DNA of 64,000 nt. Origin: Patescibacteria group bacterium (GTDB lineage Bacteria; Patescibacteriota; Patescibacteriia; 2-01-FULL-39-33). The notes under the pieces were generated by a model that was not told the DNA's origin, made no database searches, and worked only from the letters and a program-made list of their open reading frames with translations. The position numbers and the translations under genes are program-made. Each line of letters starts with the position of its first letter. Position 1 is the first letter of the stretch. Positions 24,174-59,502 of this stretch are shown piece by piece. Where the stretch lies: positions 122,102-186,101 of the forward strand of contig JBAZMW010000003.1 in the NCBI GenBank assembly GCA_041649575.1, written 5' to 3'.

Positions 24174-24414
24174 ACACGAGAACGAGTGTAGAAGGAGGAT
24201 GCTCGCCGAAGCGAGAGTCAGCCACCAGCTGGGGTCGACTATTGGTGGGTGTTCCATCCTCCAACCAGTAACGGATCCCGGCAGTTTTCCCGGAAATCCT
24301 GCCCCAAACAAAGATGCGGCAAGGGAGGAGCGTCGTGGGGTTGCCCGTGGGTGGCTTCACGGGGACCGCCAGGAGCACACCTCCCTTGCCCGACCCGACC
24401 GATGATGTCCTCAG

Positions 24415-24805
24415 CGAGAGTGAGATCCTGCTACCCGACAGGGGGAGGGCGGCAGAAACAATCATCCGATCGGTGGAACTGGCCAGGGCAAACAGTATTT
24501 CCGTTCGTGGAGAGCGCGCTGGGTGCTCTACTGATACGGAGAATGTTGCCCTGTTAATGGCTTTAAAGGAGGACGGAGCTGGGCTTGGGCGGCCCAGTAA
24601 GGCTACTACCGACATTGGGTGAAACCAGCTGGTCATTGGCGCCGGTAAACCTCTCCGTCCACAAGAACACTGATAACGGCCACAATTCTGTCCACTAGTA
24701 TATGGCTCCATCCATAAGGATAGAAACATAATTTGCGATGAACAACTGTTAGGAGGGAAACAGCTATCCACCAACTAGCAGACAGAATTATGGCCGTTAA
24801 TGATT
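24415..24805 (+). ncRNA. rnpB: probable RNase P RNA (rnpB), reduced bacterial type
   Basis: A GC-rich, ORF-poor block in an AT-rich genome, next to tRNAs. A P4-like pairing with a bulged U is present: 5' strand GGAAC-U-GGCCAGGGCAAACAG (24475-24495) pairs with the CR-V-like ACAGAAUUAUGGCCGUUA (24782-24799). There is a P2-like CUGCUA/UAGCAG pair. GGGUGAAAC (24618-24626) and GGUAAAC (24644-24650) match conserved regions III and IV. The ends are approximate. Confidence 0.45.
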
Positions 24806-44100: not shown

Positions 44101-47042
44101 GAAGGTCTTTCTGCTTCTTCGTCTGGATTTTCACCCGACTCCGGAGCTGGCGGCGGTGGAGGAGGGAGAACTTCCCCAGATAAATCCCCAAGCGGTGCTT
44201 CTGAATCATCTGGCCGCATCACTTCAACGCTCTCTATTCTATTGGTATTTTCTTGCCTGCCATCTTCAAAAAGCAACAGCATCCCGGCTGTGGTATCCAC
44301 CAATCCCCTGAAGTCTCCGATAAAACTCGATCCGTCCGTACAGACCCCTGCTAGTTTATCGCCAGGCTTACAACCGCGAAGTACTGCAAGTACTCTTTCT
44401 ATTCTTTCTTTATCTTTTTTATCTTTATCTTCGGCGTCAGACTCTACCGGCGCAGGCCTAGGCGTTTCAACCGCCTCACTGGTCGCCGTCACCCTAGCTC
44501 TAACAATCTCGCCACCCGGCTTAGTAAAACCCATAGTAACAACCGCAGCAACTTTTAGATTACGGCCCTTGGGACCTTCAGTAAATGTAACCTCATGATA
44601 CTTCTCATTAATATTATCGCCCAGCTGAACTAGCCAAAGTCTAAAACCAAAACTTTGCATTAACCCTGATAAATATCCGACTTTTGCGGTTTCAAAAACG
44701 GGACCATTAACCGCATCACAATATTCTCTGCCAATTTCATCTACCAAAACTTGCACCGCGTGCTCTCTGCTTTCTGTTTCTATTTTGTCTTGTAATCCTC
44801 TAGCGCCAGCAGCTAGCTGTCTCATCCCCAAGGCTTCTGCTCTGCTAAGAATTGCTGAGAGCATGGCTTGCAGCTCTTGCTGTTCCGCGCTAAGCTCTGC
44901 TTCTGCTTTTTCGTCTCCTTTTGGTGTTTCTGGCGCCGGCTGTTCGATGGCCGGTGCTAACACCTCAATCTTTGTTATTAAAGAAAGAAGGATCTTTTTT
45001 GGCTTTAAGTCACTTGGTTTGCCTTTGATCTTTACGCGGTCACCTTCCACTCCATCAAAAAAGCCCTCTTCTTTCATTCCGCCCAAATCTACCAAAATCC
45101 TAGTGCCAAGCGGCAAATCTTTTAATTGATCGGCTGTTACTTCCCGTCCTGACTGCTTAGCGCCTAACCGCTCGGCTACCTCATTCATTATTTGCAAAGC
45201 ACATTCCCGAACCAAACCTCTGGCGGTTTCTTCTTCGGCGCTTTCTTTTTTGGGCCGATAACGAGCCTCTTGGCCGGCTGCGTTTGCAGCTGTTCTAAAA
45301 AGAGTATTTTCTAAAGCAACCAAATCTTTAGGAAGAACTTTTTCTTCCTGCTCTGTCATGTTCTGGATGATTCTTTGTTTTGTTTCCTCTAAAGCCTTTT
45401 TGAAAGCAGGCAAAAATTTAGTCTCAGATTCACCACTTCCTTCTCCTTTTAATTCTTGATCTTTCGAGCCATTCACTTCGGCCATAATTTGCTCCGCGCA
45501 CGCGCTAACCAGATTTAGAACAGCCGGCTCCTCGGCATGCTTCCAGCCTTTTGTCGCCCTGATAGTTTTGTCGAGAATCGACTTTTCTAATTTATCTTTT
45601 TCTTCCGGCTTAATCCTTCTTCTCTCACTCTTCATTCTTTTGACTATCTCCTCTCGCGTCTGGTCTAATGCCTCTTTAAAAGCTTCCAAGAATGCCTCAA
45701 ACTCATTTTTTTCCTCCCCCTTTCTGATAATTTCAGTGTCAATGCTTTCGCCAACCTCGCACTGGGCATTACCCTGTAATAGAATACGACAATTTTTGGC
45801 TTTTCTAATAGCCAGCTTAGCGCCATCCTCAACGACAAATCTGCTATCTGTCGCACTCTCGACTTCCATGGATATCCCGGCTCCGATCTTTTCTCTGCGC
45901 CTGTCGTTCATCTCTCTTCTTCTTACTGTTTTGAGCCCCGATCCTGGCTTTTCTTCTATAGATCCGCCATTCTTCCCGGTGGTATCAAGCTCGGCTTCAA
46001 TTTGTTCAGCGAAATTTTGGGATGCTTGGCGCACCAGGTCTTTTTCGGCTGCCGACTGCGCCTCCAAGCCGGTTTCTTTTTGGACGTCACGCTCAACTGT
46101 CCCAAAAAATATAGTTTTTTGCATATCATTGGCTTCTTGCGCATCATCAGCGCCAGCTCTAATTATGGTTATAAATTCTTGCCTTCTTCCATTTAAAACC
46201 CTCTCAAAAACAGGCAAAAACCTGTCTCTAAATTCCGGTCTGATTTCTGGCGACTCGGCCGCTGGAGCCCCTCCTTTTATTTCTCCTTTAAACGCGGCAT
46301 GGGTTTCACGCAGCCCCTCTAATTCAGCTACAACTGCTTCTAACTCTTTATATAAAGGATTAAATTCATCTCTTAAAGCTTCTATATCTTCACCTATACT
46401 CTCTAAAGCCTGCACACTAAAAACCTTATTTATTAAAAAACCCAAAAAACGTTCAATTATTTCAATCTCCTGATTAATGATTTTTTGAGCCCACTCCGGC
46501 TTGGCCTCTACCTTGGCCCTGACACTCGATAAAATAGTTTTGCCTTCAACTATGCCTGATCTCTCTTTGGCCGCGTTAACTTCTGCTCTAATTTGATCAA
46601 GAGCAATTTCGGCTTCTGCCGTCTCGGCCGGTGGCGGCGGGATTTCAACGCCAACTACGGGGAGATGTAATCCTAAAACTGATCTGGCATTATCAATAAC
46701 CCACCGAGCATTTGCCTTGTTGATTACTCCACCACGCCCTTCTTTCTTGAAAGTGTCAGACATATCCAAAATGTGCTCCAGTCCGGCTAAGAGCTCATCT
46801 AATTCCGGCGCCTGCAGGTCGGACAAATCGGACAAAGCATTAAAAGAATCTACAGCAGCCCTGAATTCTTCTACTTCTGGTTCCTTTCTTCCTGAAAGAT
46901 TAGTCTTTATTCTCAAAAGAGCCCTATTTATTCTTTTTCTTTTTTCCTTGTTCTCTTTTCTCTCGGCCTCTGTTGCCTCTCCTTCGGCTCCGGGCTCAAG
47001 CTCGTCTTCTTTGTCTGGAGTTTTTGGTTTATAATCTCCCAT
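41196..47042 (-). CDS. giant (1948 aa) acidic, coiled-coil/low-complexity protein with central TM segment, tandem Pro/Ala-rich repeats and repeated small beta-domains
   Basis: Single ORF; E/K-rich, predicted coiled-coil N-terminal half; three copies of a small module (..LRGCKPGDKLAGVCTDGSSFIGDFRGLVD.. / ..FRGIKPGSMIRVTYLSATYEEKFLGLVEEG.. / ..LPLGTRILVDLGGMKEEGFFDGVEGDRVKIKG..); a hydrophobic stretch LIVSGALLGAAVALATPAVATSFAASAPLLTAVFFA; a tandem approx 36-aa repeat (GAQRVLDAGAPEAAPGGASAEHTPGAAPAE x2), which is a 108-bp DNA repeat at about 42366-42590; and a C-terminal approx 400-aa globular region. Confidence 0.75.
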   Translation of the reverse strand: MGDYKPKTPDKEDELEPGAEGEATEAERKENKEKRKRINRALLRIKTNLSGRKEPEVEEFRAAVDSFNALSDLSDLQAPELDELLAGLEHILDMSDTFKKEGRGGVINKANARWVIDNARSVLGLHLPVVGVEIPPPPAETAEAEIALDQIRAEVNAAKERSGIVEGKTILSSVRAKVEAKPEWAQKIINQEIEIIERFLGFLINKVFSVQALESIGEDIEALRDEFNPLYKELEAVVAELEGLRETHAAFKGEIKGGAPAAESPEIRPEFRDRFLPVFERVLNGRRQEFITIIRAGADDAQEANDMQKTIFFGTVERDVQKETGLEAQSAAEKDLVRQASQNFAEQIEAELDTTGKNGGSIEEKPGSGLKTVRRREMNDRRREKIGAGISMEVESATDSRFVVEDGAKLAIRKAKNCRILLQGNAQCEVGESIDTEIIRKGEEKNEFEAFLEAFKEALDQTREEIVKRMKSERRRIKPEEKDKLEKSILDKTIRATKGWKHAEEPAVLNLVSACAEQIMAEVNGSKDQELKGEGSGESETKFLPAFKKALEETKQRIIQNMTEQEEKVLPKDLVALENTLFRTAANAAGQEARYRPKKESAEEETARGLVRECALQIMNEVAERLGAKQSGREVTADQLKDLPLGTRILVDLGGMKEEGFFDGVEGDRVKIKGKPSDLKPKKILLSLITKIEVLAPAIEQPAPETPKGDEKAEAELSAEQQELQAMLSAILSRAEALGMRQLAAGARGLQDKIETESREHAVQVLVDEIGREYCDAVNGPVFETAKVGYLSGLMQSFGFRLWLVQLGDNINEKYHEVTFTEGPKGRNLKVAAVVTMGFTKPGGEIVRARVTATSEAVETPRPAPVESDAEDKDKKDKERIERVLAVLRGCKPGDKLAGVCTDGSSFIGDFRGLVDTTAGMLLLFEDGRQENTNRIESVEVMRPDDSEAPLGDLSGEVLPPPPPPAPESGENPDEEAERPSPLPEESPAERTERLLEKFRGIKPGSMIRVTYLSATYEEKFLGLVEEGEKPYIRTFNFVDNKAYATWIESVLDVELIAPPLESESAPLDLAEAERLVRELEESGKKPEDELEDESEESTLKSHEEEDDAAPFPPSDKTGEGPIIIETEEDKPTLDQARKAYYQARRERMKLIGKSEFRGKKGEQKLEQLRRSYEATLQESIRSKVQTGELSPLAMFPDRLAQGLVDLYDKENQLVWAEFEGKEKSRGERLKGWWQRHATGRLIVSGALLGAAVALATPAVATSFAASAPLLTAVFFARRILGGTGTAMGVDAALERFTKRFGDKGLAQKIYKEYAKEKRKDPKAAKAWLEKKFGSLSDKDLKEELARITALAERKGKRQVDVFGDRMKPVIDQMYQASLARMEERLTAIDTSGYSLADALSNQLDFYISTSHQAEEQTGRAERRKEIQRGVIAAAAGLVVGIQPWQWLRGHGAATGAAEAGSGGSGAEAPHAGVSPEGQPPAEGAQRVLDAGAPEAAPGGASAEHTPGAAPAEQPTVEGSNPPAEGAPRVPDAGAPEAASGGAPTEHTPGAAPAESATTETAPGPEAPEKLTEFEQALEVVEGVEAKGSHTVWGVIEKKCEAALGSTVKKAIESGQTYPAELGLPKDVDISKMTSEALKKLPVFREGKITYLVDSIKDAVAKSPTEFGLPANIDHVTPEDLAKLAGNDKFNELVASTFFDPKTGDTGKVLQAAGKLSEKTLSQIESNNAYLRQVVGLVKGSGVSLDQSAYDLMGQAHEAGLEPGRAAEILSSGVKGVAKEVVSFYSGNPKVVPGETLNGLVESHGADLAKKVLTFAGGEVAPDSAVGKLISGTEVLNSPNLESWVKLTRLVEAGTAPSKEVAKILSEAGITGQASAAKVTKGVLQFTLAESNIDVRINPAELVMEASHQGGTGEAVSRSAPYAGKNPAAVLKKVIEAVRPLQDKVVTA

Positions 47043-47067
47043 ATAAATTAATTATTTTTATAATCAA

Positions 47068-47385
47068 TTATTTTAAATTCTCGCGCCAAGCCGCGACATC
47101 GCCGGCCAGCTGTTCTTTGAAATTGGTGACCTCTTCCAAAATTATCGCCTGCAGATCAACCTTGCCGTTCAAAAACTGTCCGATTTCTTCGTCGGAGACG
47201 CCTTTGGCGGTGAGTTTGTCAAACTCCAACTGATCCGGCTCGGAGAACTCATCCATCAGACGGAAAGAAACGCGGTCGCTAACCACCTCGTTTAGTTTGG
47301 TGAGTAAAACTTGTTTTTTGGCTTCATCCAGGTTTTCCAGGCCCAAAATGTTGAAAACATTCTGATCCAAAAAGAGTAAATTCAT
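47068..47385 (-). CDS. small acidic hypothetical protein, co-operonic upstream partner of the 1948-aa gene
   Basis: 105 aa, pI clearly acidic (many D/E); 25 nt upstream of the giant gene on the same strand. Confidence 0.5.
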   Translation of the reverse strand: MNLLFLDQNVFNILGLENLDEAKKQVLLTKLNEVVSDRVSFRLMDEFSEPDQLEFDKLTAKGVSDEEIGQFLNGKVDLQAIILEEVTNFKEQLAGDVAAWRENLK

Positions 47386-47602
47386 AAATTTTATTTATTT
47401 TTTATTGTTAATTATTGAATTTTGTTTAAAATAACAGTATTCCAGCTAGAGCTTAATCTGGCTGTCTGAATATATTATACCAAACAAAGAGAATTGGTGA
47501 AAGGGTGGCAAAATAAATAATTATTAACTAATTTTATTTATACTTTTTGGCTAAAATTAGATAATATTCTTGATAAAAAAGAAGCTTTTTTCTCAACTAC
47601 TA

Positions 47603-47631
47603 TTGACAAATTATTTATGGTATGCTATAAT
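47603..47631 (+). promoter_or_regulatory. perfect sigma70-type promoter TTGACA-17-TATAAT (cassette copy 1)
   Basis: TTGACA at 47603-47608, a 17-nt spacer, TATAAT at 47626-47631; embedded in the conserved context TACTATTGACAAA...GTATGCTATAAT. Confidence 0.75.
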
Positions 47632-47716
47632 GAGTAGTTCGGTAAGTAACCGAAAGCACATCACAAAGGCAGCCCTGGTAATGACACCGGGGTTCGCAAG
47701 AGAAAAGGAGAAGACG

Positions 47717-48697
47717 ATGGGTACGGACACAGGAATAGAGGACGATGTGGTGATTATTGGTGAGGACACCGGCATCGCTGACACCGGCATCGCTGACACA
47801 AAGACGAGTCGGCCGAAGCGTAAAGTCGGAATCTGGCGGATCGTGCTGGGCCTGATCGGCCTGGCGCTCATCGCCTTCGCGGCATTGACCGCGTACGGCC
47901 TGATCGTCAAGACCGACGCGATTGACCGGCGTGTCGTCGTGCTGGAAAATCGCGTCGACGGTTTCGACGAACGCATCAAGGCCGGTGACGAGGCGGTCGA
48001 GGACATCTCCAAAGCCACCGACGATCTGTGGAGGCGAATGGCGAATGTCGAGAAACGCTTCGACAAGGATGGAGAATTCGCGAAGACCGTGGCCGCGGTT
48101 GCCAAGACCGCCGAAGACGTGACGGCGCTGCAAGCCGCGGTCGATGAAATCCCCGATGCCATGGCCGAGGCCACAGCTGGAATCGAAGGCCGGGTCAAAG
48201 CCCTCGAAGACGGCGCCGCGCAGGCACAGGAGAGGGCCAGCCGCGAGCTCCTGATGCTCAAGGTTGCCGAGATCCGCCGCGCGAATCCGGCGAGCGATGT
48301 CAGCGCCATGAGCGACGCGGACATTGGCAAGACGCTGGCTGGCAAGGGCGGCAACGATTTTCGCAAGAAGATTGAGGCCGCATACGTCAGCCTCGGAGCC
48401 AAGCCTGTCGTCACGGCACCAGCTCCGGCTCCAGCACCGGCACCAGCGCCAGCGGTAAATCTGGCTGAGGTAGAACGCCGGCTGGACGCGGCCGAGAAAG
48501 AAGTAAAACTTGTCGGGCAAGCCGCCAAAACCTTGGCGACGAATCCTGACAAGCCGAAGCACCTGGTGCGTGGCGCCAAGGCGAGGGCGCTCAAGCTGTT
48601 GGTGGATGTCCCCGACGACTTGCCACCCGCCTCCGCAAGACCGGCATCCCCGAAGAAGGACAACGTCATCCGGCCGGAGTTCGGGGACCGGCCGTAA
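47717..48697 (+). CDS. GC-rich island gene: coiled-coil protein with N-terminal TM helix and (PA)n repeat
   Basis: Start chosen at the ATG with strong RBS (AAAAGGAGAAGACG-ATG) downstream of the promoter; the track ORF starts upstream of the promoter at 47570. TM WRIVLGLIGLALIAFAALTAYGLIV; long Ala/Glu-rich helical region; PAPAPAPAPAPA run. Confidence 0.6.
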   Translation: MGTDTGIEDDVVIIGEDTGIADTGIADTKTSRPKRKVGIWRIVLGLIGLALIAFAALTAYGLIVKTDAIDRRVVVLENRVDGFDERIKAGDEAVEDISKATDDLWRRMANVEKRFDKDGEFAKTVAAVAKTAEDVTALQAAVDEIPDAMAEATAGIEGRVKALEDGAAQAQERASRELLMLKVAEIRRANPASDVSAMSDADIGKTLAGKGGNDFRKKIEAAYVSLGAKPVVTAPAPAPAPAPAPAVNLAEVERRLDAAEKEVKLVGQAAKTLATNPDKPKHLVRGAKARALKLLVDVPDDLPPASARPASPKKDNVIRPEFGDRP

Positions 48698-48730
48698 CAC
48701 GTACCTTTGATCGCGCACCTCGTGCGTTAG

Positions 48731-48780
48731 CCCCCCCAGACTCTGGCAGTTTCATAGAGTCTGGGGGGTGAATTATTTTA
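48731..48780 (+). terminator. stem-loop terminator after island coiled-coil gene
   Basis: CCCCCCAGACTCT-(loop)-AGAGTCTGGGGGG, an 11-13 bp stem, followed by a U-poor tail TGAATTATTTT. Confidence 0.55.
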
Positions 48781-49160
48781 GAGAGATTTTGCTTTTATAT
48801 ATTGACTAAACAAGACAAAACTGATAAAATTATTTTTGATATTTATGGATTACTGCCCCCGCCAGAATGACTCTGTCGGGCTGGCGCCCGACTGAACGGC
48901 GTTCAGCCGTTCGGGCGGGGCTCAGTCTTGCCCCGTAGAATACTGCTAAAGCAGTAGCGCCAGAGGCGCTATTCTACGGGGTGAAGTTAGAGCGCTCCCC
49001 CTGTCACGGAAGAGGGTCGCCGTAGGCGACGGGCAGAAGCGAGCCATGAGCAAAGCGAATGAAACGAGCGTAGATGAATGCGACCATGGGAGCATTCGGC
49101 TCTGCCAGGAAACATCGGGTGCAACCCGCGACCGTCAAACTTTTTACAAGTTAATATTTA

Positions 49161-49234
49161 TGGATTGGTAGCTCAGTTGGTTAGAGCGCTCCCCTGTCAC
49201 GGGAGAGGTCGCGGGTTCGAGTCCCGTCCAGTCC
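49161..49234 (+). tRNA. tRNA-Asp (GUC)
   Basis: Acceptor GGATTGG/CCAGTCC, D-arm GCTC-AGTTGGTTA-GAGC, anticodon arm CTCCC-CTGTCAC-GGGAG, T-arm GCGGG-TTCGAGT-CCCGT, discriminator G; CCA not encoded. It is followed by the hairpin ATCACCC-TTGC-GGTGATTTTTGTTTT. Confidence 0.85.
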
Positions 49235-49413
49235 GCTGGATAAAACAAAAATCACCCTTGCGGTGATTTTTGTTTTACTACACGAAGTGGAGAGGGGCTC
49301 GAACGGGTTGGCAGCGAGGCAAATCCGAAGGATGCAGCCGAGCGTCAAAAATTGCGAGCTGGCGCAGCAATTTTTGCCAACCCAGGACAGAGTGAGCAAA
49401 GCGAACGCCGAGA

Positions 49414-49430
49414 AGTCCCGTCCAGTCCGC
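49414..49430 (+). repeat. 17-nt direct repeat of the tRNA-Asp 3' end (AGTCCCGTCCAGTCCGC), att-like scar
   Basis: Exact copy of tRNA positions 49219-49235, about 180 bp downstream. Confidence 0.7.
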
Positions 49431-49539
49431 ATTTTTCTAGTCAGCCCCAAGTGGGCTGATTTTTGAGAATAAAAAAGAGCGGCGATCCACACGACGGTGA
49501 ATCTCCCGCTCTACAATGTCCTGATAGCCTTTCAGCGGT

Positions 49540-50268
49540 TTATCCTCTGCCACCGCCGACCAGTGCGCGTAACGCGTTGAACATGCCATCAGCCACTTGT
49601 GTCCTTCGCGTATCCATGGACTCAAGCATGGCATCGATCCTGTCGAAGCCGTCTCGACCGTACTCAAGAAGTGTTGGGCCATAGAATAGCCGCGTGAACA
49701 GTTCATTACCGACAAAACTCCATTCGGTGTAAGGCGTCTCTGAGTAACCGTCAGAGTTGTCGTGGATGTCGAAAACCCTGTTGGTGTGCGTACCGGCGAT
49801 GAGAATATCGCCACCCTCGACTTGTCCGGTTACAGTCACCAACGCCTGTTGAAGCCTCTCCATAAAATACTCCTGGTACCACTCCCTGACTTTCGTCAGG
49901 ACAATGTTTCTCGATTCCTCCGGAAGATTGGTGACAATGTGCCCGGTCTGCCTCGGACTGAGCCTGACCATCGAGTTGCTGCTCAACTTGTCCAAGAACA
50001 CGCCCAGACCGATGTTCAACCAGAGGCCATCCGTGAGGTTGAGAATGGGAGAGTTGATGATAAAGATGTGTGTCCTAGCTTGATCTGGGTCCTGGGCAAT
50101 TCGACGAATGACCTCCAGTCCGTCTTGTTGGTTGAGACAAAGGTGGGGACGAAAACAGCTTTCTTTCGCTTGCACTAGGGCAGCAATTCCCCTGTTAAGA
50201 TCCTGGTGCAACTGTGACCGGTCGTCAAAGTCAACCAGTAGGGTGTGGCTTTTCTTCTGATCCGACAT
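49540..50268 (-). CDS. GC-rich island gene: hypothetical alpha/beta protein (242 aa from ATG with GAGGAG RBS)
   Basis: Alternating beta-alpha pattern (HTLLVDFDD.., THIFIINSP.., DILIAGTHTNRVFDIHDNSDGY); no motif recognised. The track ORF uses an upstream TTG (to 50292). Confidence 0.55.
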   Translation of the reverse strand: MSDQKKSHTLLVDFDDRSQLHQDLNRGIAALVQAKESCFRPHLCLNQQDGLEVIRRIAQDPDQARTHIFIINSPILNLTDGLWLNIGLGVFLDKLSSNSMVRLSPRQTGHIVTNLPEESRNIVLTKVREWYQEYFMERLQQALVTVTGQVEGGDILIAGTHTNRVFDIHDNSDGYSETPYTEWSFVGNELFTRLFYGPTLLEYGRDGFDRIDAMLESMDTRRTQVADGMFNALRALVGGGRG

Positions 50269-50478
50269 ATTCTTCTCCTCGATGTTGACCAAAGAATGTA
50301 CGATTGTTAAAAAGGTATACTAAATTAAGTATTTTGTCAAATACTAAAACATAATAACTCATTATTACTATTGACAAGCCTAATATCTTGTGCTAAACTT
50401 ACCAGTTATCGATTTTGAGTCAGTACTTTGTGTAGAGCACGACAAACCGGTTCCGTGACATGAACAGGAGGACGACCA

Positions 50479-50856
50479 GTGAAAAACCACAATAGTTATG
50501 CCACTTACCAACCGAGCGACCAGCGGCTTCGCGAAGCCGACCACTGGGAGGTCTGGGATAAGCTACCGCCCGAGCTCAAGTTTGAGGCAGTGGCGGCTCG
50601 CGACCCCTCTCTGACCGCTCTGTGTGCCCGAGACAAGGGCGTGTACGTCTGGGTATTCCCGCACGCTGTACCTTCGGTCCAAAGTGGCATTGGACCATTC
50701 ATGGCTCTAGGGTCGCGACGCGGCAAGGATCGCATGGACTTCATCGTGACAACTCCTTCGGCGGATGACCCCATCGCGTTCGCCAAAGCCGAGAATGCGA
50801 GAAAGCTGAGGGAGCTGTCAAAGGGCGCCAAGGGTCCGAAGAACCATCAGAAATGA
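50479..50856 (+). CDS. GC-rich island gene: hypothetical 125-aa protein, GTG start with AGGAGG RBS
   Basis: Divergent from 49540..50268; preceded by TTGACA-17-TAAACT (50373-50401) in the ACTATTGACAA context. Confidence 0.5.
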   Translation: MKNHNSYATYQPSDQRLREADHWEVWDKLPPELKFEAVAARDPSLTALCARDKGVYVWVFPHAVPSVQSGIGPFMALGSRRGKDRMDFIVTTPSADDPIAFAKAENARKLRELSKGAKGPKNHQK

Positions 50857-51203
50857 GATGGGCGGTCGTCAAAGCCGCTACCGTCTCAACAACGCCGCAT
50901 CAGCTACCTGGTGCGGCCGTTTTAAATAATAATTTTGTTATACAGATACCAAAAGAGTTAATTTCCATCCACTCCAGAGTCCTCCGCCTAAGCTAAAGTT
51001 TTGGCGGACAAGTAAAACCTGCCTTGACTCGCGTCAGGCCTGGCGTCGCCGAAGGCTATGCCAAAGGCGCGTGAGGCAGGTCGTCCCGCAAGTCTCGGCA
51101 AAATAAACTCAGGACTCAATCACTTCCAAATCAATAAAATTTGCAAAAAGCGCTTTATATTTGATATAATAAAAACACGACTTAAAAAATAATTTATCTA
51201 ACT

Positions 51204-51407
51204 ATGCAAAAAATAGCTACAAGCATCTTTATCTTCGCGTCAATTGTTTTCGGCGTTATAGGAATTTTAGTAGTTTTAACAATGCCAGGACCCGGCAGAA
51301 CGAATTCGGATCTGAATGAATTATTTATTAGGCTTCTGTTCGCGACTGCCTTTATTATACTGCCTTCATTTGCATTAAGCATCGCCGGTAAGTATCTAAA
51401 AAAATAG
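51204..51407 (+). CDS. small (67 aa) two-TM membrane protein in AT-rich insert
   Basis: Two hydrophobic helices; AT-rich codon usage, unlike the surrounding island. Confidence 0.4.
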   Translation: MQKIATSIFIFASIVFGVIGILVVLTMPGPGRTNSDLNELFIRLLFATAFIILPSFALSIAGKYLKK

Positions 51408-51644
51408 ATTCCGATTTTAAACTTCCTTAGTCCAGTCTTTATATCAGATGTTCTTCTTTTTTTAATTCCATTGGAATATCAACAATACCCCCGTGCTCTT
51501 AAAAAATTTACAATCTCAAAATTAATAAAAAAATCCCCATCAATGGGGGTATTTTTATTTTCTGTCTTCTCTGGCGCCTATAATTACTGCCGCTATTACC
51601 AAAATTGTTAAAACCATAACTCCAAACAACATCATACCAAAATT

Positions 51645-52016
51645 TTACTTAATCTGTTTTTTCTTTTTAAACCAGCCGACGAGAAACAAGATGCCGATCA
51701 AAAACGCGACGCCGGAAAATTGTGCCGCCCATAATAATAAATACCACTCGAATTGATTTCTCGCTAGCGCGGCCAGATACAACGCGCCAGCTAAAATAAA
51801 AATAGTTCCCCCAACAATTTCATATTTCCAAGAGATTATCAGAATAACCAGCAGCACCAAGGCGGGAATATTGTGCATGAACAAACCGACAACCGTTCCC
51901 CAGAAACCCAGCTTCATATCGAAAATGTCCAGCGAAAACAACATCAAAAACAAAATAAACAAAATCGACAATATCCTTGGAATCCAATATATAAATCTAT
52001 TAACATTATTCCTCAT
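51645..52016 (-). CDS. hypothetical 4-TM membrane protein (123 aa) in AT-rich insert
   Basis: Four hydrophobic segments; no motif. Confidence 0.5.
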   Translation of the reverse strand: MRNNVNRFIYWIPRILSILFILFLMLFSLDIFDMKLGFWGTVVGLFMHNIPALVLLVILIISWKYEIVGGTIFILAGALYLAALARNQFEWYLLLWAAQFSGVAFLIGILFLVGWFKKKKQIK

Positions 52017-52318
52017 ATTTATTGTTTTATTTATATAATCAGTCTTTGAGTTTATTATACCACTTCCTGCCCGTCTCGCCCAATCCGGAATTTTAAAACC
52101 CGCCCCGACTCAACGAGGCTGGTGCGAGGCAGGTTGTCCCGCGGTCAGAACAGCTGCCGGTCGGCGCCAAGGCGGCTGCTTTAAAAATTTTAATTTTTTG
52201 CAAGCTGCACCAATGAATGTTAAAAATATTTCTTAAAAATAAATCAACCTTAAAATTTCTGGTAAATGAAAAAGGCCACCGCGACGTGCGATGGGCCTGT
52301 AGTCACTTCGCCACCTGT

Positions 52319-53098
52319 TTAGGCGGCTTCGTAAAGGTTCTGGTTGTAGTACTCCAACCGCAGACGGCCACGGCTGCCCTCGCCCGGTACGCCGACATAC
52401 TTGGTGACGCCGCAGTTGCGAGGCTTTTGTTCTTCGTCCAGTACGATGAACTCCTCGGCCGAGAGACGTTCGTAGTTGGCGCGCAGAGCCAGAATGTTCA
52501 AGTGATGGGTGACGGCCAAAACCCTCTTGCCGGAAAATTCCCGGACCAGGGTGTTGGCCCAATCGCGGTTACGCTGGCGCACATCAGGAACATTCTCACC
52601 CTGAGGGTAGCGATACCAGTAGCGACCCTCCAATTGATACAACGCGCGCTGTTCCGGATGAAGAGCAAAAAACACTCTCAAATCGTTGTAGACGTTGACC
52701 AGGCCGTGTTCCTGTTCCCGAATCCTTTCCTCTTCGTAGTACTTCACTCCTGCCAACTCCGGCCAACCGGCAATTAGCCCCCGCCAGGTCGCCTGCGTGC
52801 GAGCGTAGGGAGAAACGAAGACTACATCAGGCAGGTCTTCTATCTTACTAAGCGCCAGCCCCGTCTTCGTTGCCCGCGTGGCTTCGGCATCAGCTAGAGG
52901 TGCATTGGCATCGCTTACACCGAGACGATACTTCTGCCACACCGCTATAGCCAATGCCCTACACCTATCAGTTTCTGGGTTTTCGTCATACTTTCTGACG
53001 AACTGCCGATAAAGATCGTCCGCCTCCTTCATCCACTTGAGCTGGTTGTAGGCAGAAACATCGTGCCTTATGGCAATGATACAGGCTGGCCATTTCAT
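52319..53098 (-). CDS. histidine phosphatase (phosphoglycerate-mutase-like) family protein, GC-rich
   Basis: RH(G)-type motif IIAIRHDVSAYN near the N-terminus and a second His region VLAVTHHLNILAL. Start set at the internal ATG with GAAGGAGG RBS; the track begins at 53125. Confidence 0.6.
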   Translation of the reverse strand: MKWPACIIAIRHDVSAYNQLKWMKEADDLYRQFVRKYDENPETDRCRALAIAVWQKYRLGVSDANAPLADAEATRATKTGLALSKIEDLPDVVFVSPYARTQATWRGLIAGWPELAGVKYYEEERIREQEHGLVNVYNDLRVFFALHPEQRALYQLEGRYWYRYPQGENVPDVRQRNRDWANTLVREFSGKRVLAVTHHLNILALRANYERLSAEEFIVLDEEQKPRNCGVTKYVGVPGEGSRGRLRLEYYNQNLYEAA

Positions 53099-53321
53099 GG
53101 GCGTCAAGCCTCCTTCAAAAGTCACTCTCGCTGCTCTGGCAATCTGTCGTTACCGCCAGAAACCCAGAAATCCCTCTCGTCTATAAACCACATAAAGAAC
53201 GGTTCCAGTTCATCGATCGCGTCGCTCCAAACGTCCTAATATTAAACGTTCAATCTCCCTTGTGTTGGAGAATAAATTATTTTATTATATAAATTCCTTT
53301 TTGTCAACTGTCAAATTTTCT

Positions 53322-53350
53322 AAAACCCTCCCGATTAATCGGGAGGGTTT
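53322..53350. terminator. bidirectional terminator (CCCTCCCG..CGGGAGGG family)
   Basis: AAAACCCTCCCG-ATTAAT-CGGGAGGGTTT; a T-run on the minus side follows the pilin-like gene. Confidence 0.7.
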
Positions 53351-53374
53351 CAATTTTCAAACTCCGAGTTGCTT

Positions 53375-53890
53375 TTATTTTATTCCCAAAATTTCAAAAA
53401 TCATTTTCAGAATAACATAGGAGAGAAAAATAATCACCAGGCCGGCAATCGCCCAGATCATGGTGTTTTTGCCTTTAGTCACCCGGCCGGAATCGCCGCC
53501 GGAAACCATCCAGAGCAAGCCGCCGTAAATGAAAGCGATCAAAGCCAAGACTCCGGTGAACCCCAAGGCGGCGGTGATAATGTTTTTGGTGATGACTTGC
53601 ACCGCCTCAATGCCTTTTTTGCCGCCGGTAATGCCCTCCAGGGGATCTTTCAGACTCTGGGCCGAACCAGCGCTGCCGCCAGAAACACCTGTACCTTCTG
53701 GAGCGGAAACACCTGTACCTTCGGCGACACATTCCCCAACCTCAGAAAAAGGGTCGGCAAAACTACAGATTTGACCAGGGCCGCAATCGGCTTTAGTAGT
53801 ACAAGCTAAAACGATATTAGTGAGAGATAAAAATAAAAAAACAGAAAAACCAAAGAATGTTAATATCAACCAACCGCTTTTTCTTTTCAT
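53375..53890 (-). CDS. small secreted TrbC/VirB2-like (T4SS-pilin-like) protein
   Basis: Signal peptide, Cys-containing approx 60-aa segment, then a C-terminal two-helix hairpin LIAFIYGGLLWMVSGGDSGRVTKGKNTMIWAIAGLVIIFLSYVI. This shares the (Y)xG(F/L)LWM(T/V)xxG..K..SAF/LSY pattern with the N-termini of the two giant proteins. Confidence 0.65.
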   Translation of the reverse strand: MKRKSGWLILTFFGFSVFLFLSLTNIVLACTTKADCGPGQICSFADPFSEVGECVAEGTGVSAPEGTGVSGGSAGSAQSLKDPLEGITGGKKGIEAVQVITKNIITAALGFTGVLALIAFIYGGLLWMVSGGDSGRVTKGKNTMIWAIAGLVIIFLSYVILKMIFEILGIK

Positions 53891-54051
53891 AATATGTTAT
53901 TAAATGGTATATATTAATTCAATTATAGCTAATGGCAAAAATAAAGTAAATAACAATTTTAACAAAAAGAAAAACGGCCCGAGTTGCGCGATGCAACCCT
54001 GGCCGTTGTAGAACCGGTTGGAATTGGAATAGGTGGGTGATACAAGGCCGA

Positions 54052-54639
54052 CTATGAGAAGCGTATTCTCCTGATATGGACCTCTCCAATGGAGAGGCCG
54101 TGGAGAACCAGCTGACCCTCACCGTCGATCTTGATCACCTCGTCGCTGGCGATCGTCTGATAACCGCCCGCCTTCTGCTTGATCTTGAAAGGAGCGGTTA
54201 CGCGACTAAACTCCACGACGTCACCCGGGAAGATGGCCAGGCCGGAGCTGATCGGCTTACCAGGGCAGAACTTGATGTCCCTTTCCTCCACCGATCTGAT
54301 CGTCTTGGCCTTGGGCAACGAGGGCAAGCGAATGGCGCTGACTTTCGCCGCCACCTTCGCCTTGGCGTCGACCAGGTACGCGGGACGATAGATCGTCACC
54401 AGGACCAAGGCCAGGCCTAGTCCAGCAGTGACGTAGAAAGCCTTTTTCTTGCCCATGGCCTCCCAGACGATCCCGCCGATACCCAGAAAAATCATCAGGG
54501 CAATAGTCGCCTGAATCGGAATCCTCGCATGCTGGTCGTCTTCCTGTGACCAGAAGAAGACGCCCAGGATAATCCCGATAACTACGGCGAAGGCAATCAC
54601 CTTGCCAACCTTCTTAAGAAAACCCCAGGCTTCCTTCAT
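54052..54639 (-). CDS. GC-rich island operon gene 3: membrane protein (3 TM) with C-terminal beta-rich domain
   Basis: The start ATG overlaps the upstream stop (ATGA) and carries a GGAGG RBS. The track ORF extends to 54729. A compound hairpin plus T-run terminator lies downstream (about 53955-54000, minus). Confidence 0.55.
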   Translation of the reverse strand: MKEAWGFLKKVGKVIAFAVVIGIILGVFFWSQEDDQHARIPIQATIALMIFLGIGGIVWEAMGKKKAFYVTAGLGLALVLVTIYRPAYLVDAKAKVAAKVSAIRLPSLPKAKTIRSVEERDIKFCPGKPISSGLAIFPGDVVEFSRVTAPFKIKQKAGGYQTIASDEVIKIDGEGQLVLHGLSIGEVHIRRIRFS

Positions 54640-55208
54640 GGCAGCATCCTCCTTCCTAGTAGCTTCCGCAAGATTTCGACTATGCCTTGGCCAGCCAGTT
54701 CGGACTTCAGATCCTTCCAGAATGTCCAACTCCCGGCACCCGTGGCACTTCCGGCACCACCAGCACTTCCGCTGACCGTACCACGTTTGGTAGCACCGGC
54801 CAGGGTATTGTGTATAGCGTCAGCCAGCTCTTCGCGAAAGCTGAGTATCAGATACACAATGGCTACTGGCCAAGTGAAGAAGGCCGCCTTCCACCACCAC
54901 CATGACGGACAGTTATTGGCCGGTGACGGTGGCGTCTCATAGCCAAACACTTTGTCGAGCTGATGGAATATGTCTCGGCTGGCCGAGAAGAATAGCCCTT
55001 CGCCAAAGCCAACGAAGAATGCTTCCGCCGTGAAGACGATGGCGACGATAACCAGTCCGCAGGCACGGTAGTTATTGTTATACACCAGCCGCGCCGCCAG
55101 GTAGCCACAGTCGTAACTGATTCTCTCTGTCGTCATGCATGCCAGAAAGAGAAACAGCCCGACCGCTCCCGCCAAGAAGGCGAGATTGAGTATTATCCAG
55201 TTGATCAT
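54636..55208 (-). CDS. GC-rich island operon gene 2: 4-TM membrane protein with WWWW motif and Gly/Ser-rich tail
   Basis: Start ATG overlaps the stop of the upstream gene (ATGA); 190 aa. Confidence 0.55.
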   Translation of the reverse strand: MINWIILNLAFLAGAVGLFLFLACMTTERISYDCGYLAARLVYNNNYRACGLVIVAIVFTAEAFFVGFGEGLFFSASRDIFHQLDKVFGYETPPSPANNCPSWWWWKAAFFTWPVAIVYLILSFREELADAIHNTLAGATKRGTVSGSAGGAGSATGAGSWTFWKDLKSELAGQGIVEILRKLLGRRMLP

Positions 55209-55708
55209 GACCGCGTCTCCTTTCTGTTCTTCTCTGCCTTGGGCCGTATTACCCCACGACGAACCAGTTCGTATTCGCGAACTTCCCTAAATGCGCCCCA
55301 AAAACCACCCATGTAGGACTTCTTGAATCTCGGTCCCAATATCGTGACGGTCTTGGTGTTCGCCTGGCTGCCCTTGTCCCTGAAGGTGAACATTTCACGT
55401 TTACCTCTGACTTGGTGCTCGTGGTGCCCACTTCCCTTTTCATCGGTAATGATGATCTTCTTCTTCCCGTCGTGGAGCATCACGATTTCGGTGCGTGGAA
55501 TGGGTCGACCATCCTCGGTGAACTGAACGACGAATGCGGTTTGGCCGTCATCGTCCGTGTCAAAGGTCACCTCAATATCGTACTCCGCAGCCGCCGGCTT
55601 CTTCTCTTCTTTCTTGGAATCGCCTCTCGACTGGCCGCACTTCACGCACCTACCGGCCTTGAAGAAATTCACATTTCCACAGCCGCACGTCCAACTCTCG
55701 TTTGCCAT
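55205..55708 (-). CDS. GC-rich island operon gene 1: zinc-ribbon protein (CxC..CxxC) with unknown C-terminal domain
   Basis: Start at the ATG with AAAGGAGAG RBS (MANESWTCGCGNVNFFKAGRCVKCGQ..). The track ORF extends to 55807 but has poor RBS spacing. Confidence 0.55.
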   Translation of the reverse strand: MANESWTCGCGNVNFFKAGRCVKCGQSRGDSKKEEKKPAAAEYDIEVTFDTDDDGQTAFVVQFTEDGRPIPRTEIVMLHDGKKKIIITDEKGSGHHEHQVRGKREMFTFRDKGSQANTKTVTILGPRFKKSYMGGFWGAFREVREYELVRRGVIRPKAEKNRKETRS

Positions 55709-55832
55709 GGCCTTACTCTCCTTTCCTAATCCAACCGTTCTGTTAAAGAACTGGGCTGGAAACCGTTTTCCCTTGTTATACCCCTCTTCGCCTTGAAAAG
55801 GAGTCATTTCAGGGGAAAGCCGTTCCTCCAGC

Positions 55833-55861
55833 CTAACATATAATTATAGCATACTATCAAT
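55833..55861 (-). promoter_or_regulatory. perfect sigma70-type promoter TTGACA-17-TATAAT (cassette copy 3, minus strand)
   Basis: On the minus strand the sequence reads TACTATTGACAAAATATTGATAGTATGCTATAAT. It shares the TACTATTGACAA and GTATGCTATAAT blocks with the 47603 promoter. Confidence 0.75.
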
Positions 55862-55944
55862 ATTTTGTCAATAGTAAATTAAATAAATAAAAATAGCTAA
55901 ATTTAGCTAAAAACTTAAAACGCAAAGGTTAAAAAAATATAGAG

Positions 55945-56781
55945 TTAATCTTCTGCTTTAGGTTTTGAATTTTTACGCCTCGACTCGCCGAAGGCGAGAC
56001 AAGTAGCTTTGACTTTCAATATCCCTACGCCAGCTATGATTAATAGAACACTGATTATTTGCGGCAGCCTGATTCCCCACCACAGAGCCGTCTCGTCGAT
56101 ACGGATAAACTCCATAAAAAATCTGATCAGCCCATAGCCGATAAAATAAATGGCCAAGAGCGACCCTGGCCGGCAGTTGTTTTTTCTGGCCAAAAGAAAC
56201 AAGATCAAAAACAAAACAAAATCCAAAACAGATTCATACAAAAAAGCGGGCTGGAAATATCGGTTTGACAAAAAAATTTCCGGACGATTTTTCGGTTCGA
56301 TGGGAATGCCCCAGGGCAAGTTGGTGGGCCGACCAAACAACTCTTGATTGAAATAATTGCCCCAGCGGCCAATGGCCTGGCCCAGGGCCAGAGCGGGAGC
56401 AGCCAAGTCGACTACTTGCCAAAAGGAAATTTTCTTTTTTCGGCTCCAAAAAATTACCACGATGATGCCGCCAATAATGGCGCCATGAATCGCCAGGCCG
56501 CCTTGCCAAATTTTAAAAATCTCCGGCAAGTTGTGACTGTAATAGGACCAATCCAAAACAAAAACCTGATAAAGACGGGCGCCCAAAATACCGCCGACAG
56601 CCAGCCAAAGGCCCAGGTCTAAAGCCAGCTCAAATTTTAGGCCTCTTCTTTTGGCCAGAGAGCCGGCGACCAGAATGCCCAGAAGCAAGCCCAAGACGAT
56701 TATCAGACCATACCAGCGAAACGAGAGCGGCCCAAACTGGAAGATAATCGGCTGCGGATAAAAATAATGAAAAAAATTCAT
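55945..56781 (-). CDS. lgt: prolipoprotein diacylglyceryl transferase
   Basis: WYGLIIVLGLLLG.., QGGLAIHGAIIGG, GRWGNYFNQE signature. Confidence 0.85.
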   Translation of the reverse strand: MNFFHYFYPQPIIFQFGPLSFRWYGLIIVLGLLLGILVAGSLAKRRGLKFELALDLGLWLAVGGILGARLYQVFVLDWSYYSHNLPEIFKIWQGGLAIHGAIIGGIIVVIFWSRKKKISFWQVVDLAAPALALGQAIGRWGNYFNQELFGRPTNLPWGIPIEPKNRPEIFLSNRYFQPAFLYESVLDFVLFLILFLLARKNNCRPGSLLAIYFIGYGLIRFFMEFIRIDETALWWGIRLPQIISVLLIIAGVGILKVKATCLAFGESRRKNSKPKAED

Positions 56782-56811
56782 ATCTTAAAGTATAACAGAA
56801 AAATAAAAAAA

Positions 56812-56840
56812 ATCGACCCCCGAACCGGAGTTCGGGGGAA
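56812..56840 (-). terminator. terminator hairpin for the small GC-rich cassette gene
   Basis: CCCCCGAAC-TCCG-GTTCGGGGG, followed on the minus strand by TTTTTTTT. Confidence 0.65.
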
Positions 56841-56882
56841 TTAAAGCTTTGACCAAAGAAGTTCGCTTGGAGCAGTACAGGA

Positions 56883-57200
56883 TTACGTGGTGCCGCAATA
56901 GGCTGGCCGGTGGGAGCTGCGTCGCACAGTTCCTCTTGGCGGCCTTTCGGCTCTCCTGATCCGAGGGCGCTGAAGCGTGTTGGAGACTATCTGGTAGCCT
57001 CTCGCGACCAAGTCGCGGATGAATGCCTTCACCCTTCCACGTCCTTTCACCAGTGCCATATGCAGCTGATCCTTCAAATCCCGATACCTGACAAGATACC
57101 TTCTCATGCGCCATCGCTCCTTATGTTTTCCTCTGCCAGAATGCCCTATACTCATTTTCGACCAATCGGTTATGACCCTCCTTTCCAATGTCCACAGCAT
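56883..57200 (-). CDS. small (105 aa) basic protein in a self-contained GC-rich cassette, possible toxin-like/leaderless gene
   Basis: The ORF is flanked by its own TTGACA-17-TATGAT promoter (57209-57237, minus), with the ATG only 8 nt downstream of the -10 (leaderless-like), and by its own terminator. The protein is Arg-rich (..RRYLVRYRDLKDQLHMALVKGRGRVKAF..). The alternative plus-strand ORF 56910..57215 cannot be excluded. Confidence 0.4.
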   Translation of the reverse strand: MLWTLERRVITDWSKMSIGHSGRGKHKERWRMRRYLVRYRDLKDQLHMALVKGRGRVKAFIRDLVARGYQIVSNTLQRPRIRRAERPPRGTVRRSSHRPAYCGTT

Positions 57201-57259
57201 GATTGTTTATCATAGCACCAGGCAGGAGGTTTGTCAAACTTATCTTAAAGAAACTACGT

Positions 57260-59073: not shown

Positions 59074-59502
59074 TTAATTTTTGTTTTTGGAATGAAAAAT
59101 AAAAACTACCAGTAGCGGCACCAGCGCTCCCACTACAGCCACCAAAACGGTTTCGGTAATCAGATTAAAAAGTTTCCACAACTGGAAACCGTCGAAAAGC
59201 CTGAAAATCGCGACTACCAAGCCGATGACCAGGCCGGCGCAACCGCCAGCGATGGCGGCAATAGGCAAGCTGCGGCCAAAAACCTTAATCACCCGCCAGC
59301 CGATAAGCAAAAAAATGATTAGTCTGATAATCCAGGCCAGCAGCTCGTTTTGGCTAAAAATGATTCCCGCCTCGAAATTTCTGGACCAGCTGCGGAAAGC
59401 CAATTCCAGAATCAGAGCCAAAAGCAGCCACCATTTGATAAAAGAAAAATAAACGGTGAAATCTATCGGCTCCCAGGTTTTTTTTGCTTTGATTTCTGAC
59501 AT
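59074..59502 (-). CDS. hypothetical 4-TM membrane protein
   Basis: 142 aa, hydrophobic throughout. Confidence 0.5.
   Translation of the reverse strand: MSEIKAKKTWEPIDFTVYFSFIKWWLLLALILELAFRSWSRNFEAGIIFSQNELLAWIIRLIIFLLIGWRVIKVFGRSLPIAAIAGGCAGLVIGLVVAIFRLFDGFQLWKLFNLITETVLVAVVGALVPLLVVFIFHSKNKN

Follow-up and report, generated by a model that had tools for sequence, protein, structure and literature searches.

Is the GC-rich segment between 47.6 and 55.9 kb of a 64-kb stretch of bacterial DNA (the window, meaning the whole stretch that was analyzed), which contains a tRNA-Asp gene with att-like repeats, a single island acquired by horizontal transfer? The window encodes tmRNA, seven tRNAs, IF3, Lgt, pyruvate kinase (PK), GroEL, an AI-2E transporter, and a DUF5663 protein, and from its tmRNA, IF3, Lgt, PK, GroEL, and DUF5663 content we take the host to be a member of the Patescibacteria. 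A sequence-only reading had interpreted the segment as a horizontally acquired, possibly mobile or defence-related region. Our analysis indicates that the segment is probably the junction of two inherited Patescibacteria blocks together with a small variable patch, and that the att-like repeats stem from two insertions of small elements at tRNA-Asp. Of the earlier interpretation, the idea of one foreign island was given up because of the synteny and of the GC content and Shine-Dalgarno (SD) traits shared with relatives, while that of an accessory, plastic zone beside the tRNA was retained.

We compared the segment with its relatives, all of which lie above the strain level: the closest species-representative genome (L002) is only 62% identical in Lgt and Buchananbacteria approximately 52%, and a closer relative that was reached via gene C (L082) has backbone proteins 61% to 80% identical to those of the window. 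An independent Logan assembly of the same organism (L001) is 100% identical to the window across 49207-57884 and ends inside tRNA-Asp. The inherited block on the right has the order GroEL, PK, Lgt, the K-J-I operon, pilin (gene H), and histidine phosphatase (gene G). Within it, o423-GroEL-PK-Lgt is conserved among relatives, the pilin directly follows Lgt in L003, L008, L043, and L068, and a further contig (P0007) carries, with all of them on the same strand, PK, a small open reading frame (ORF), Lgt, two genes, pilin, pilin, MarR, and a histidine phosphatase (HisPhos) with 66% identity to G. For G, 467 homologues were found at 55% to 70% identity, named Patescibacteria, Parcubacteria, or Buchananbacteria, and the divergence of G equals that of Lgt. 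The K-J-I slot is occupied in L002 and in a further relative (L009) by a three-gene operon encoding a Zn-ribbon protein, a J homologue, and a multi-pass membrane protein (J versus L002, E 5e-15, with a conserved motif in L009; K versus L002, E 2.6e-4), and in more distant relatives the slot between Lgt and pilin is empty or otherwise filled. A homologue search with J returned J alone because the relatives are too diverged for the word index. The inherited block on the left has the order (IF3-L35-L20-)A-tRNA-Asp. In L082, IF3-L35-L20 is followed by a coiled-coil protein with a GC content of 0.58 (240 amino acids [aa], 29% identical to A, E 1.4e-7) and then by tRNA-Asp, and in L202 L20 is followed by a structured leader and tRNA-Asp; the slot between L20 and the tRNA is thus differently filled or empty in different relatives. 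K-J-I and A are old accessory modules that evolve very fast, since their slots are empty or differently filled in distant relatives. An absence of the segment from relatives, as predicted for an island, was not what we found: A, tRNA-Asp, C, G, H, J, and K lie at matching positions in L082, L002, L009, or the P0007 contig. Only approximately 49.4-52.3 kb (D, E, F, and the fam2 repeats) is devoid of a positional counterpart in relatives, and L082 has C in the corresponding place. These positional counterparts make the segment the meeting point of two inherited blocks and not one island.

The compositional signal was analyzed using the rest of the window as baseline. The GC content of 47650-55830 is 50.9% versus 44.5% in the remaining window, so the elevation described earlier is real, but the rise is patchy and does not form a uniform island of 55% to 60% against flanks of 40% to 45%; the gene blocks range from 52% to 60%. 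Genes A, C, D, G, I, J, and K are outliers in GC content (z 2 to 4) and in GC content at third codon positions (GC3; z 2.5 to 3.7) when compared with the 39 other ORFs, and pilin H (0.465) and E and F (0.37 to 0.39) are not. The strong ribosome-binding sites also proved to be genuine: AGGAGG-type SD sites of 5 to 7 nt precede the seven GC-rich genes and the small GC-rich ORF to the right of Lgt (8/8), and among 30 non-island genes one has such a site and 29 have essentially none (Fisher P approximately 1e-7 versus the GC-rich genes). The GTG starts attributed to the segment reduce to that of D, with A, C, G, I, J, and K all starting with ATG. The promoters placed at both edges are perfect 12/12 sites, near-identical to each other and pointing inward (Table 1). 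SD-less genes of the window follow AT-rich leaders and are often TATAAT-proximal; in many of them (for example 55945-56781, 59074-59502, and 30726-31493) a TATAAT-like box lies 7 to 10 nt upstream of the ATG. This suggests that the default initiation in this genome is leaderless or SD-independent and that the SD-led genes are the exception.

The same traits were found in the relatives. The K/J/I-like genes of L002 and L009 exceed the locus average by 4 to 10 GC points, the A-like gene of L082 reaches 0.58 against 0.44, and the HisPhos gene of L208 has a GC content of 0.47 among neighbours of 0.36 to 0.40. AGGAG-type sites are present in the GC-rich orthologues of the relatives, and Lgt, pilin, L20, L35, IF3, ProRS, and MarR have none there. 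Because the GC excess and the SD sites have been kept in orthologues despite large divergence, they are the property of a gene class and not the trace of a recent import. The GC-rich genes are a conserved class with long leaders, strong promoters, and strong SD sites, and the other genes are SD-less and often leaderless-looking. The way in which SD-led genes are constructed and expressed, rather than a recent foreign origin, would thus account for the compositional contrast. For programs that call islands this is a caution, because in these ultra-small bacteria a leadered, SD-dependent, GC-richer class imitates horizontal transfer both in composition and in translation signals, and the two-class gene organization hints at two modes of translation initiation within one cell.

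That the whole of 47.6-55.9 kb is one acquired mobile or defence island at tRNA-Asp would account for the GC and GC3 outliers, the SD sites unlike those of the rest of the genome, the near-identical inward promoters at the edges, the tRNA with its repeats, and the many genes of no known function. We nevertheless consider it very improbable, since it is largely refuted by the synteny of G, H, J/K, and A in relatives, and since native-looking genes (H, E, and F) are interspersed and there is no integrase, PHROG, or PADLOC signal. Pfam and NCBIfam show no recombinase among the segment proteins, and no tyrosine-recombinase hit was obtained in the stop-to-stop segments of at least 60 aa of the whole 64-kb window. 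Apart from the phosphatase and coiled-coil noise, NCBIfam yielded only a weak pilin-like match; PHROGs returned only a generic phosphatase family and coiled-coil noise for the segment proteins, and PADLOC only weak coiled-coil matches for A (E approximately 1e-3). Phage relatives were looked for by megablast of the segment against 50,697 phage genomes, which matched the tRNA only. VirB4, VirD4, and relaxase are missing from the ten segment proteins, where the PF18895 pilin stands alone (the rest of the window was not fully scanned). When the segment is examined as a genomic island bounded by a tRNA and its repeat, the sole 3'-end repeat encloses no gene, and the deviant composition of A, C, D, G, I, J, and K recurs in the orthologues of relatives. 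The histidine-phosphatase-family enzyme and the small pilin-like protein of the sequence-only reading were both recovered, as His_Phos_1 and as PF18895 T4SS_pilin, and so was the AT-rich insert of approximately 0.9 kb; the view that only the tRNA and the phosphatase have recognizable homologues was too narrow, as the PF18895 pilin and DUF7670 were recognized too. An integron-like cassette array was rejected as well, given the genes' own promoters and mixed orientation and the lack of attC-type R/L boxes or IntI in the segment.

The att-like repeats proved to be genuine, with the intact tRNA-Asp gene between two partial copies of itself (Table 1). The upstream copy is a displaced internal part of the tRNA and is followed by a folded unit of approximately 95 nt (class U, unit upstream of the tRNA) and by a short antisense tRNA segment, an arrangement of which L202 shares the displaced tRNA fragment upstream of tRNA-Asp. 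Downstream of the tRNA come a terminator, an antisense tRNA segment, a second unit (class D, unit downstream of the tRNA), and a repeat of the tRNA 3' end that sits 178 nt past tRNA-Asp. The same architecture is found in L002, where a comparable terminator precedes the downstream unit, but there the two unit sub-types are swapped. Both classes are thus present at tRNA-Asp in the window and in L002, class U only in L202, class D only in L082, and no unit in L009. In L002, the flank that follows the direct repeat, including the terminator, is the orthologue of the sequence immediately past the tRNA of L009; unit and terminator together are therefore an insertion that duplicated the tRNA end. Tested as att sites, the units therefore show a direct repeat and a tRNA that has been restored, and a relative has the empty site (L002 versus L009). 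A tyrosine integrase lies immediately downstream of tRNA-Asp in L009 and a Fic protein beside the same tRNA in L002, and the view of the surroundings of tRNA-Asp as a plastic zone is supported. At the same locus of L009 (18336-20226), an ORF of 223 aa with LAGLIDADG-type motifs (LGFFTADG and YFDGDG, identified by eye) overlaps the 5' end of tRNA-Asp. The L001 assembly ends exactly at 49207 in tRNA-Asp, which is the start of the 11-nt segment inverted at 49123-49133; evidently, the repeats break short-read assembly or the population is heterogeneous at this position.

To see how far the unit extends beyond this locus, we used 17 bases of its conserved hairpin (AATGCGACC-N3-4-GGAGCATT) as a seed, which matched more than 120 metagenome contigs. 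Because 17 fixed bases match at random in a very large collection, many seed matches may be due to chance. Loci were used only if they showed extended similarity, were hit by the model, or were linked to a tRNA, and many seed loci are similar far beyond the seed. A tRNA lies within 700 nt at 42 of the 124 seed-selected loci, almost always on the same strand and with at least 15 isotypes represented, where the tRNA density in 1.2 Mb of Patescibacteria DNA predicts approximately 13 tRNA-linked loci (P approximately 1e-13). In 18 of the 36 class D cases, the 3' end of the tRNA, from within the T-loop onward, is repeated exactly over 12 to 22 nt past the unit, and the 5' edge of the unit is the antisense of the same tRNA segment. 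Antisense edge and sense repeat thus make up a closing stem that reproduces the acceptor/T-arm part of the tRNA gene. Class U is the mirror image, in which a copy of the tRNA 5' part is followed by the unit, a short antisense of the T-stem region, and then the tRNA. Tandem unit arrays (L105) and truncated second copies were seen as well, and in L133 a cargo gene separates the tRNA from the unit. In three independent loci (L126, L167, and L194), the spacer and the start of the unit are duplicated past the tRNA-end repeat up to the first bases of the hairpin (AATG or AATGCG), after which the sequences diverge; this hints that the conserved hairpin is a breakpoint or cleavage site.

An alignment of 20 cores of the scaffold type found in the window describes a three-way junction, in which 98% of the cells are paired and compensatory changes occur in 11 of the 19 pairs (4.8±1.2 in shuffled alignments, 0 of 500 of which reached this number, and at most 3 in slid controls). 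Because the invariant hairpin columns are fixed by the seed, the covariation evidence rests on the other helices. The covariation strongly supports the fold and indicates that the units are under selection for it in single-stranded form. A covariance model built on the alignment found exactly two copies in the window, which flank tRNA-Asp and the second of which was absent from the training set, and only four copies, each by a tRNA, over 1.25 Mb of Lgt-anchored loci. Four seed matches in IMG/VR were not confirmed by the model and were discarded. The unit had no match in Rfam 15 at E<=1 in the window region nor at E<=0.5 in 17 other unit-bearing loci, and known ribozymes, riboswitches, GOLLD, ROOL, RNase P, YrlA, and omega RNAs were rejected for the GC-rich non-coding blocks, as none gave an Rfam match. 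Neither the concept nor the motif sequence of the unit was found to be described in the literature. The unit is a widespread and apparently undescribed folded element of approximately 100 bases that inserts into tRNA genes and rebuilds them.

Altogether, these comparisons show that the units have inserted into tRNA genes in the region of the T-arm, each time leaving the tRNA intact and a fragment of it displaced, and that they are gained and lost at one locus among relatives. The att-like repeats come from a small element without a protein that inserted twice, once on either side of tRNA-Asp: each insertion hit the T-arm, displaced the old 5' or 3' part of the gene, and supplied a replacement, so that an intact tRNA-Asp results. 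The anatomy of the repeats and the comparison of the filled with the empty site show these insertion steps. The units would most likely be miniature non-autonomous derivatives of integrative elements that target tRNA genes; the fold would then serve as an end module close to the att site, on which a recombinase encoded elsewhere would act in trans. A tRNA intron, either group I or archaeal, was rejected because the fragments flank an intact tRNA, none of the intron families matches, and the unit lies outside complete tRNAs elsewhere.

Covariation of this strength, tandem G.A pairs typical of RNA motifs, the location of unit and tRNA on the same strand in nearly all cases, and an antisense-plus-sense stem that equals the 12- to 20-bp acceptor/T stack would also be expected if the units were functional non-coding RNAs co-transcribed with the tRNA, their closing stem mimicking the 'top half' formed by the acceptor and the T-arm. 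Such RNAs could act as processing signals, decoys, or sensors for tRNA-end-recognizing enzymes or toxins, and the class U copy, which lies inside the leader between promoter and tRNA, must be transcribed. We hold this explanation to be fairly unlikely. It has to contend with the filled and empty sites and the presence/absence polymorphism at a single locus, with the strong terminator that often separates the tRNA from the class D unit, with the tandem arrays and truncated second copies, with the different sub-types at the same position in the window and in L002, and with a repeat exactly identical to the tRNA, which suggests recent events. In an extended form of the insertion reading, the unit would be a programmable targeting module, the arms of which, as RNA or as a folded single-stranded DNA, would copy the T-arm/acceptor of the chosen tRNA and steer a trans-acting recombinase there. 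We regard this extension as a long shot. If it held, the scaffold could be retargeted to any tRNA by a change of arms and would be the tRNA-homing counterpart of bridge-RNA-guided or hairpin-att recombination. Both strands of the target are present in the closing stem of the unit itself. A mobile non-autonomous element of this kind would represent a new way to parasitize tRNA genes, and arms that specify the target could make it a new programmable recombination system.

Several observations weigh against the reading of two inherited blocks with small-element insertions at tRNA-Asp. The units have no recurrent protein family as neighbour: when the 1,257 ORFs located within 4 kb of them were clustered all against all, the result was only translated units or tRNAs and local synteny, and a hidden Markov model search detected a tyrosine recombinase within 4 kb at 3 of approximately 124 loci, many of them on short contigs (at L145, the integrase gene ends approximately 130 nt before the unit). 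In the 50,697 phage genomes, 25 diverse cores searched as one concatenated query had no match. The compensatory changes and tandem G.A pairs point to selection on a single-stranded fold, a requirement absent from a plain double-stranded att arm, and an element of approximately 200 bp is very small for ordinary integrase chemistry. Persistence of GC-richness in one gene class over such divergence has no explanation. No similarity was detected between the I protein of the window and its I-like counterparts in L002 and L009, or between K and the L009 protein, so the K-J-I operon may be partly replaced. Between the window and L082, C shows higher conservation (82% in protein and 84% in DNA) than L20 (79%), ProRS (80%), and the backbone DNA (67% to 71%), which fits a more recent exchange of C. 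Without a strain-level relative, a recent gain or loss of D, E, or F is not datable. These same features of I and C, together with identities of 26% for J and 29% for A in a conserved position where backbone proteins reach 60% to 80%, the slots that are empty or differently filled elsewhere, the transposase remnant beside C in L082, and the strong promoters that these genes own, could mean that the GC-rich genes with SD sites, above all K-J-I, A, C, and D, have been swapped repeatedly at fixed slots from a GC-richer, SD-using phage or plasmid pool, retaining their place on the chromosome but neither their sequence nor the composition of the host. Such a hot spot seems unlikely to us, because G shares the GC and SD traits yet has backbone-like conservation and a wide vertical distribution, no phage, plasmid-like, or PHROG relatives were found for these proteins, and no recombination sites bracket the slots. 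On balance we retain the junction of two inherited blocks, in which K, J, I, and A would be very fast-evolving membrane or surface proteins.

Table 1. Features of the 47.6-55.9 kb segment in window coordinates.
Feature	Position	Strand	Remarks
Promoter, sigma-70-type with extended -10	47603..47631	+	12/12 TTGACA-17-TATAAT, TG present; drives A via approximately 80-nt leader
Gene A, membrane-anchored coiled-coil protein, 326 aa, PAPAPA linker	47717..48697	+	GC 0.60, SD-led
Promoter-like site TTGACT-17-TAAAAT with TG	48802..48830	+	Precedes structured tRNA-Asp leader
Leader: tRNA 5'-context repeat ATTTATGGATT (48841-48851; again 49156-49166), then 134-nt structured insert	48841..48985	+	Minimum free energy (MFE) -80.5 kcal/mol, z -6.8
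Displaced partial tRNA-Asp copy, positions 19-47 (D-arm 3' side, anticodon arm, variable loop)	48986..49015	+	93% over 30 nt
Class U unit, three-way junction, hairpin AATGC-GA-CC...GG-GA-GCATT	49028..49116	+	Covariance model, 79.8 bits
Antisense of tRNA-Asp positions 46-56, AACCCGCGACC	49123..49133	+	Closes class U unit; repeat comparison
tRNA-Asp (GTC), intact	49162..49236	+	69.6 bits
Hairpin terminator, perfect 16-bp, 100% complementary	49241..49277	+	Apparently arrived with downstream unit
Antisense of tRNA-Asp T-loop and T-stem, GGGGCTCGAAC	49294..49304	+	One mismatch; 5' edge of class D unit
Class D unit, diverged 'TTGG' variant	49302..49392	+	55 bits, E 9e-13; outside training alignment
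Exact 17-nt direct repeat of tRNA-Asp 3' end (T-loop to 3' terminus)	49414..49430	+	Displaced original end; repeat comparison
Terminator-like hairpin	49439-49465	+	After 17-nt direct repeat
Gene C, near-orphan, 242 aa	49540..50268	-	GC 0.52, SD-led; relatives are an 82% homologue by L082 tRNA-Asp and a 46% homologue only
Gene D, 125 aa, GTG start	50479..50856	+	GC 0.585, SD-led; small rare family
fam2 non-coding repeat, copy a	50961..51095	+	Also next to C in L082
AT-rich insert, E and F	51204..52016		GC 0.32-0.41 around 51.1-52.05 kb
E, 67-aa membrane peptide	51204-51407	+	No SD; native-looking composition
F, DUF7670	51645-52016	-	No SD; native-looking composition
fam2 non-coding repeat, copy b	52085..52155	+	Forms direct repeats with copy a around E-F
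Gene G, His_Phos_1 predicted histidine phosphatase, 259 aa	52319..53098	-	GC 0.55, SD-led; native Patescibacteria family, conserved synteny
Gene H, T4SS_pilin (PF18895)	53375..53890	-	Native composition; conserved Lgt neighbour
I, membrane protein	54052-54639	-	GC 0.56, SD-led
J, multi-pass membrane protein	54636-55208	-	GC 0.55, SD-led
K, Zn-ribbon protein	55205-55708	-	GC 0.52, SD-led; operon K-J-I 54052..55708
Promoter	55843..55871	-	12/12 with TG extension; drives K-J-I via approximately 130-nt leader

In the variable patch between the blocks, D has 21 relatives among 1.84e9 representative proteins, and a structure prediction of C (predicted local distance difference test score 52.7) was unusable. 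The L082 copy of C lies near the 3' end of an rve-type transposase (recognized by eye from a ...YNTERPH... motif) and beside an AT-rich gene (26% GC). The GC-rich fam2 sequence reads ...ATTTCCAYCCACTCCAGAG...TAAAACC.GCC..GACTC...GAGGCAGGTYGTCCCGC, and a shorter copy lies at L082 167-250, by C and the transposase remnant. As a structured RNA fam2 was rejected, as it folds no better than shuffled sequences (z -0.2 to -2.1), and we treated its copies as plain repeats.

Of the genes in the two blocks, G is a predicted enzyme of the histidine-phosphatase superfamily, H a predicted membrane protein of the T4SS_pilin family, and A has profile matches to coiled coils only. In H, a lipobox-like VLAC motif closes the signal peptide, and the gene adjoins Lgt. 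Tandem arrays of 4 to 6 PF18895 paralogues are located 4 to 7 kb from Lgt in many Patescibacteria loci (L007, L014, L025, L029, L033, L034, L037, and others), which suggests a functional tie between the PF18895 'pilins' and lipoprotein processing. Between PK and Lgt, a basic, GC-rich, SD-led ORF of 74 aa occupies 56883-57107 (-), with a promoter at 57237-57209 (-; 11/12), and L002 and the P0007 contig have small ORFs of 74 and 138 aa, respectively, in the same slot. To the left, a 1948-aa protein with no Pfam domain and a DUF5663 protein (41196-47385, -) separate L20 from A and are missing at the L082 counterpart; the two genes thus form a second variable insertion, immediately left of the segment.

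Other observations concern the window at large and the loci compared. Proteins of 3297 and 1077 aa are also encoded in the window. A GC-rich stretch of 627 nt (24174-24800, -) lies between a promoter-like site (approximately 24865-24838) and a tRNA-Asn/Asn/Ala cluster. Its MFE is -275 kcal/mol versus -215±5 kcal/mol for shuffled sequences (z -11.4), its GC content is even over the codon positions, so that it is probably non-coding, and it has no Rfam match. The stretch is a candidate for a large structured RNA co-transcribed with the tRNAs. Upstream of Lgt, comparison of L002 (2-2428) with L009 (7126-9522) revealed a PEP-utilizing enzyme that carries in L002 an intein-like insertion after a GGRTC motif (...GGRTCFSGDTLVLTNKGF...) and is uninterrupted in L009 (...GGRTCHASIV...).

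We finally compared these loci with known systems. The right block resembles the PF18895 loci located by Lgt in Patescibacteria in that the pilin adjoins Lgt, as in many of them, and HisPhos lies downstream, as in one relative, but K-J-I between Lgt and pilin is present only in the window, L002, and L009. The units differ from miniature inverted-repeat transposable elements, as their inverted pair is tRNA sequence that differs for each tRNA and the duplications are 12 to 22 nt or longer, with no target duplication of fixed length. With GOLLD and ROOL, which are often found by tRNAs in phage-like DNA, they share the linkage of GC-rich, structured, non-coding DNA to tRNAs, which includes the 627-nt leader of the window; however, the Rfam models of these RNAs do not match, and the units are approximately 95 nt long and bracketed by tRNA fragments. 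As in the bridge RNA of IS110 and the omega RNAs of IS200/605 TnpB and of IscB, a structured scaffold is combined with a segment derived from the target, and many targets are used. In contrast to those systems, no IS110, TnpB, or IscB gene is adjacent to the units, the tRNA-derived direct repeat is long, the guide-like segment is paired to its own complement, and no Rfam match to omega RNAs or to HEARO-type RNAs was obtained. Folded single-stranded att sites, such as the attC of integrons and the attP of CTX-phi used by XerCD, also contain a stem that reproduces the duplex target and a structure conserved beyond sequence in the helices. The order predicted for them after integration (target, cargo, antisense arm, loop, and sense arm) is the one observed here; this is a resemblance of layout only. 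A guide that specifies its target would also show this order of antisense arm, scaffold, and sense arm. The units differ from such sites in that they have no IntI or Xer context and no known single-stranded replicon, their target is a tRNA gene, and their loop is a conserved scaffold of approximately 95 nt. The closest parallels are found with the integrative elements (prophages, genomic islands, and ICEs) that target tRNA genes by means of tyrosine integrases and have an att core from the T-loop to the 3' end: an intact tRNA, an insert, and a 12- to 22-nt repeat of the 3' end, a restored gene, an imported terminator, and filled versus empty sites, with an integrase by the unit of L145, a full-length-like case, and cargo in L133. 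Unlike these elements, the units have no match among phage genomes, most of them are approximately 150 to 250 nt long, protein-less, and folded into a covarying three-way junction, one unit scaffold is used at 15 or more tRNA isotypes, the target is carried both in antisense and in sense, and the mirror class displaces the 5' part of the tRNA.

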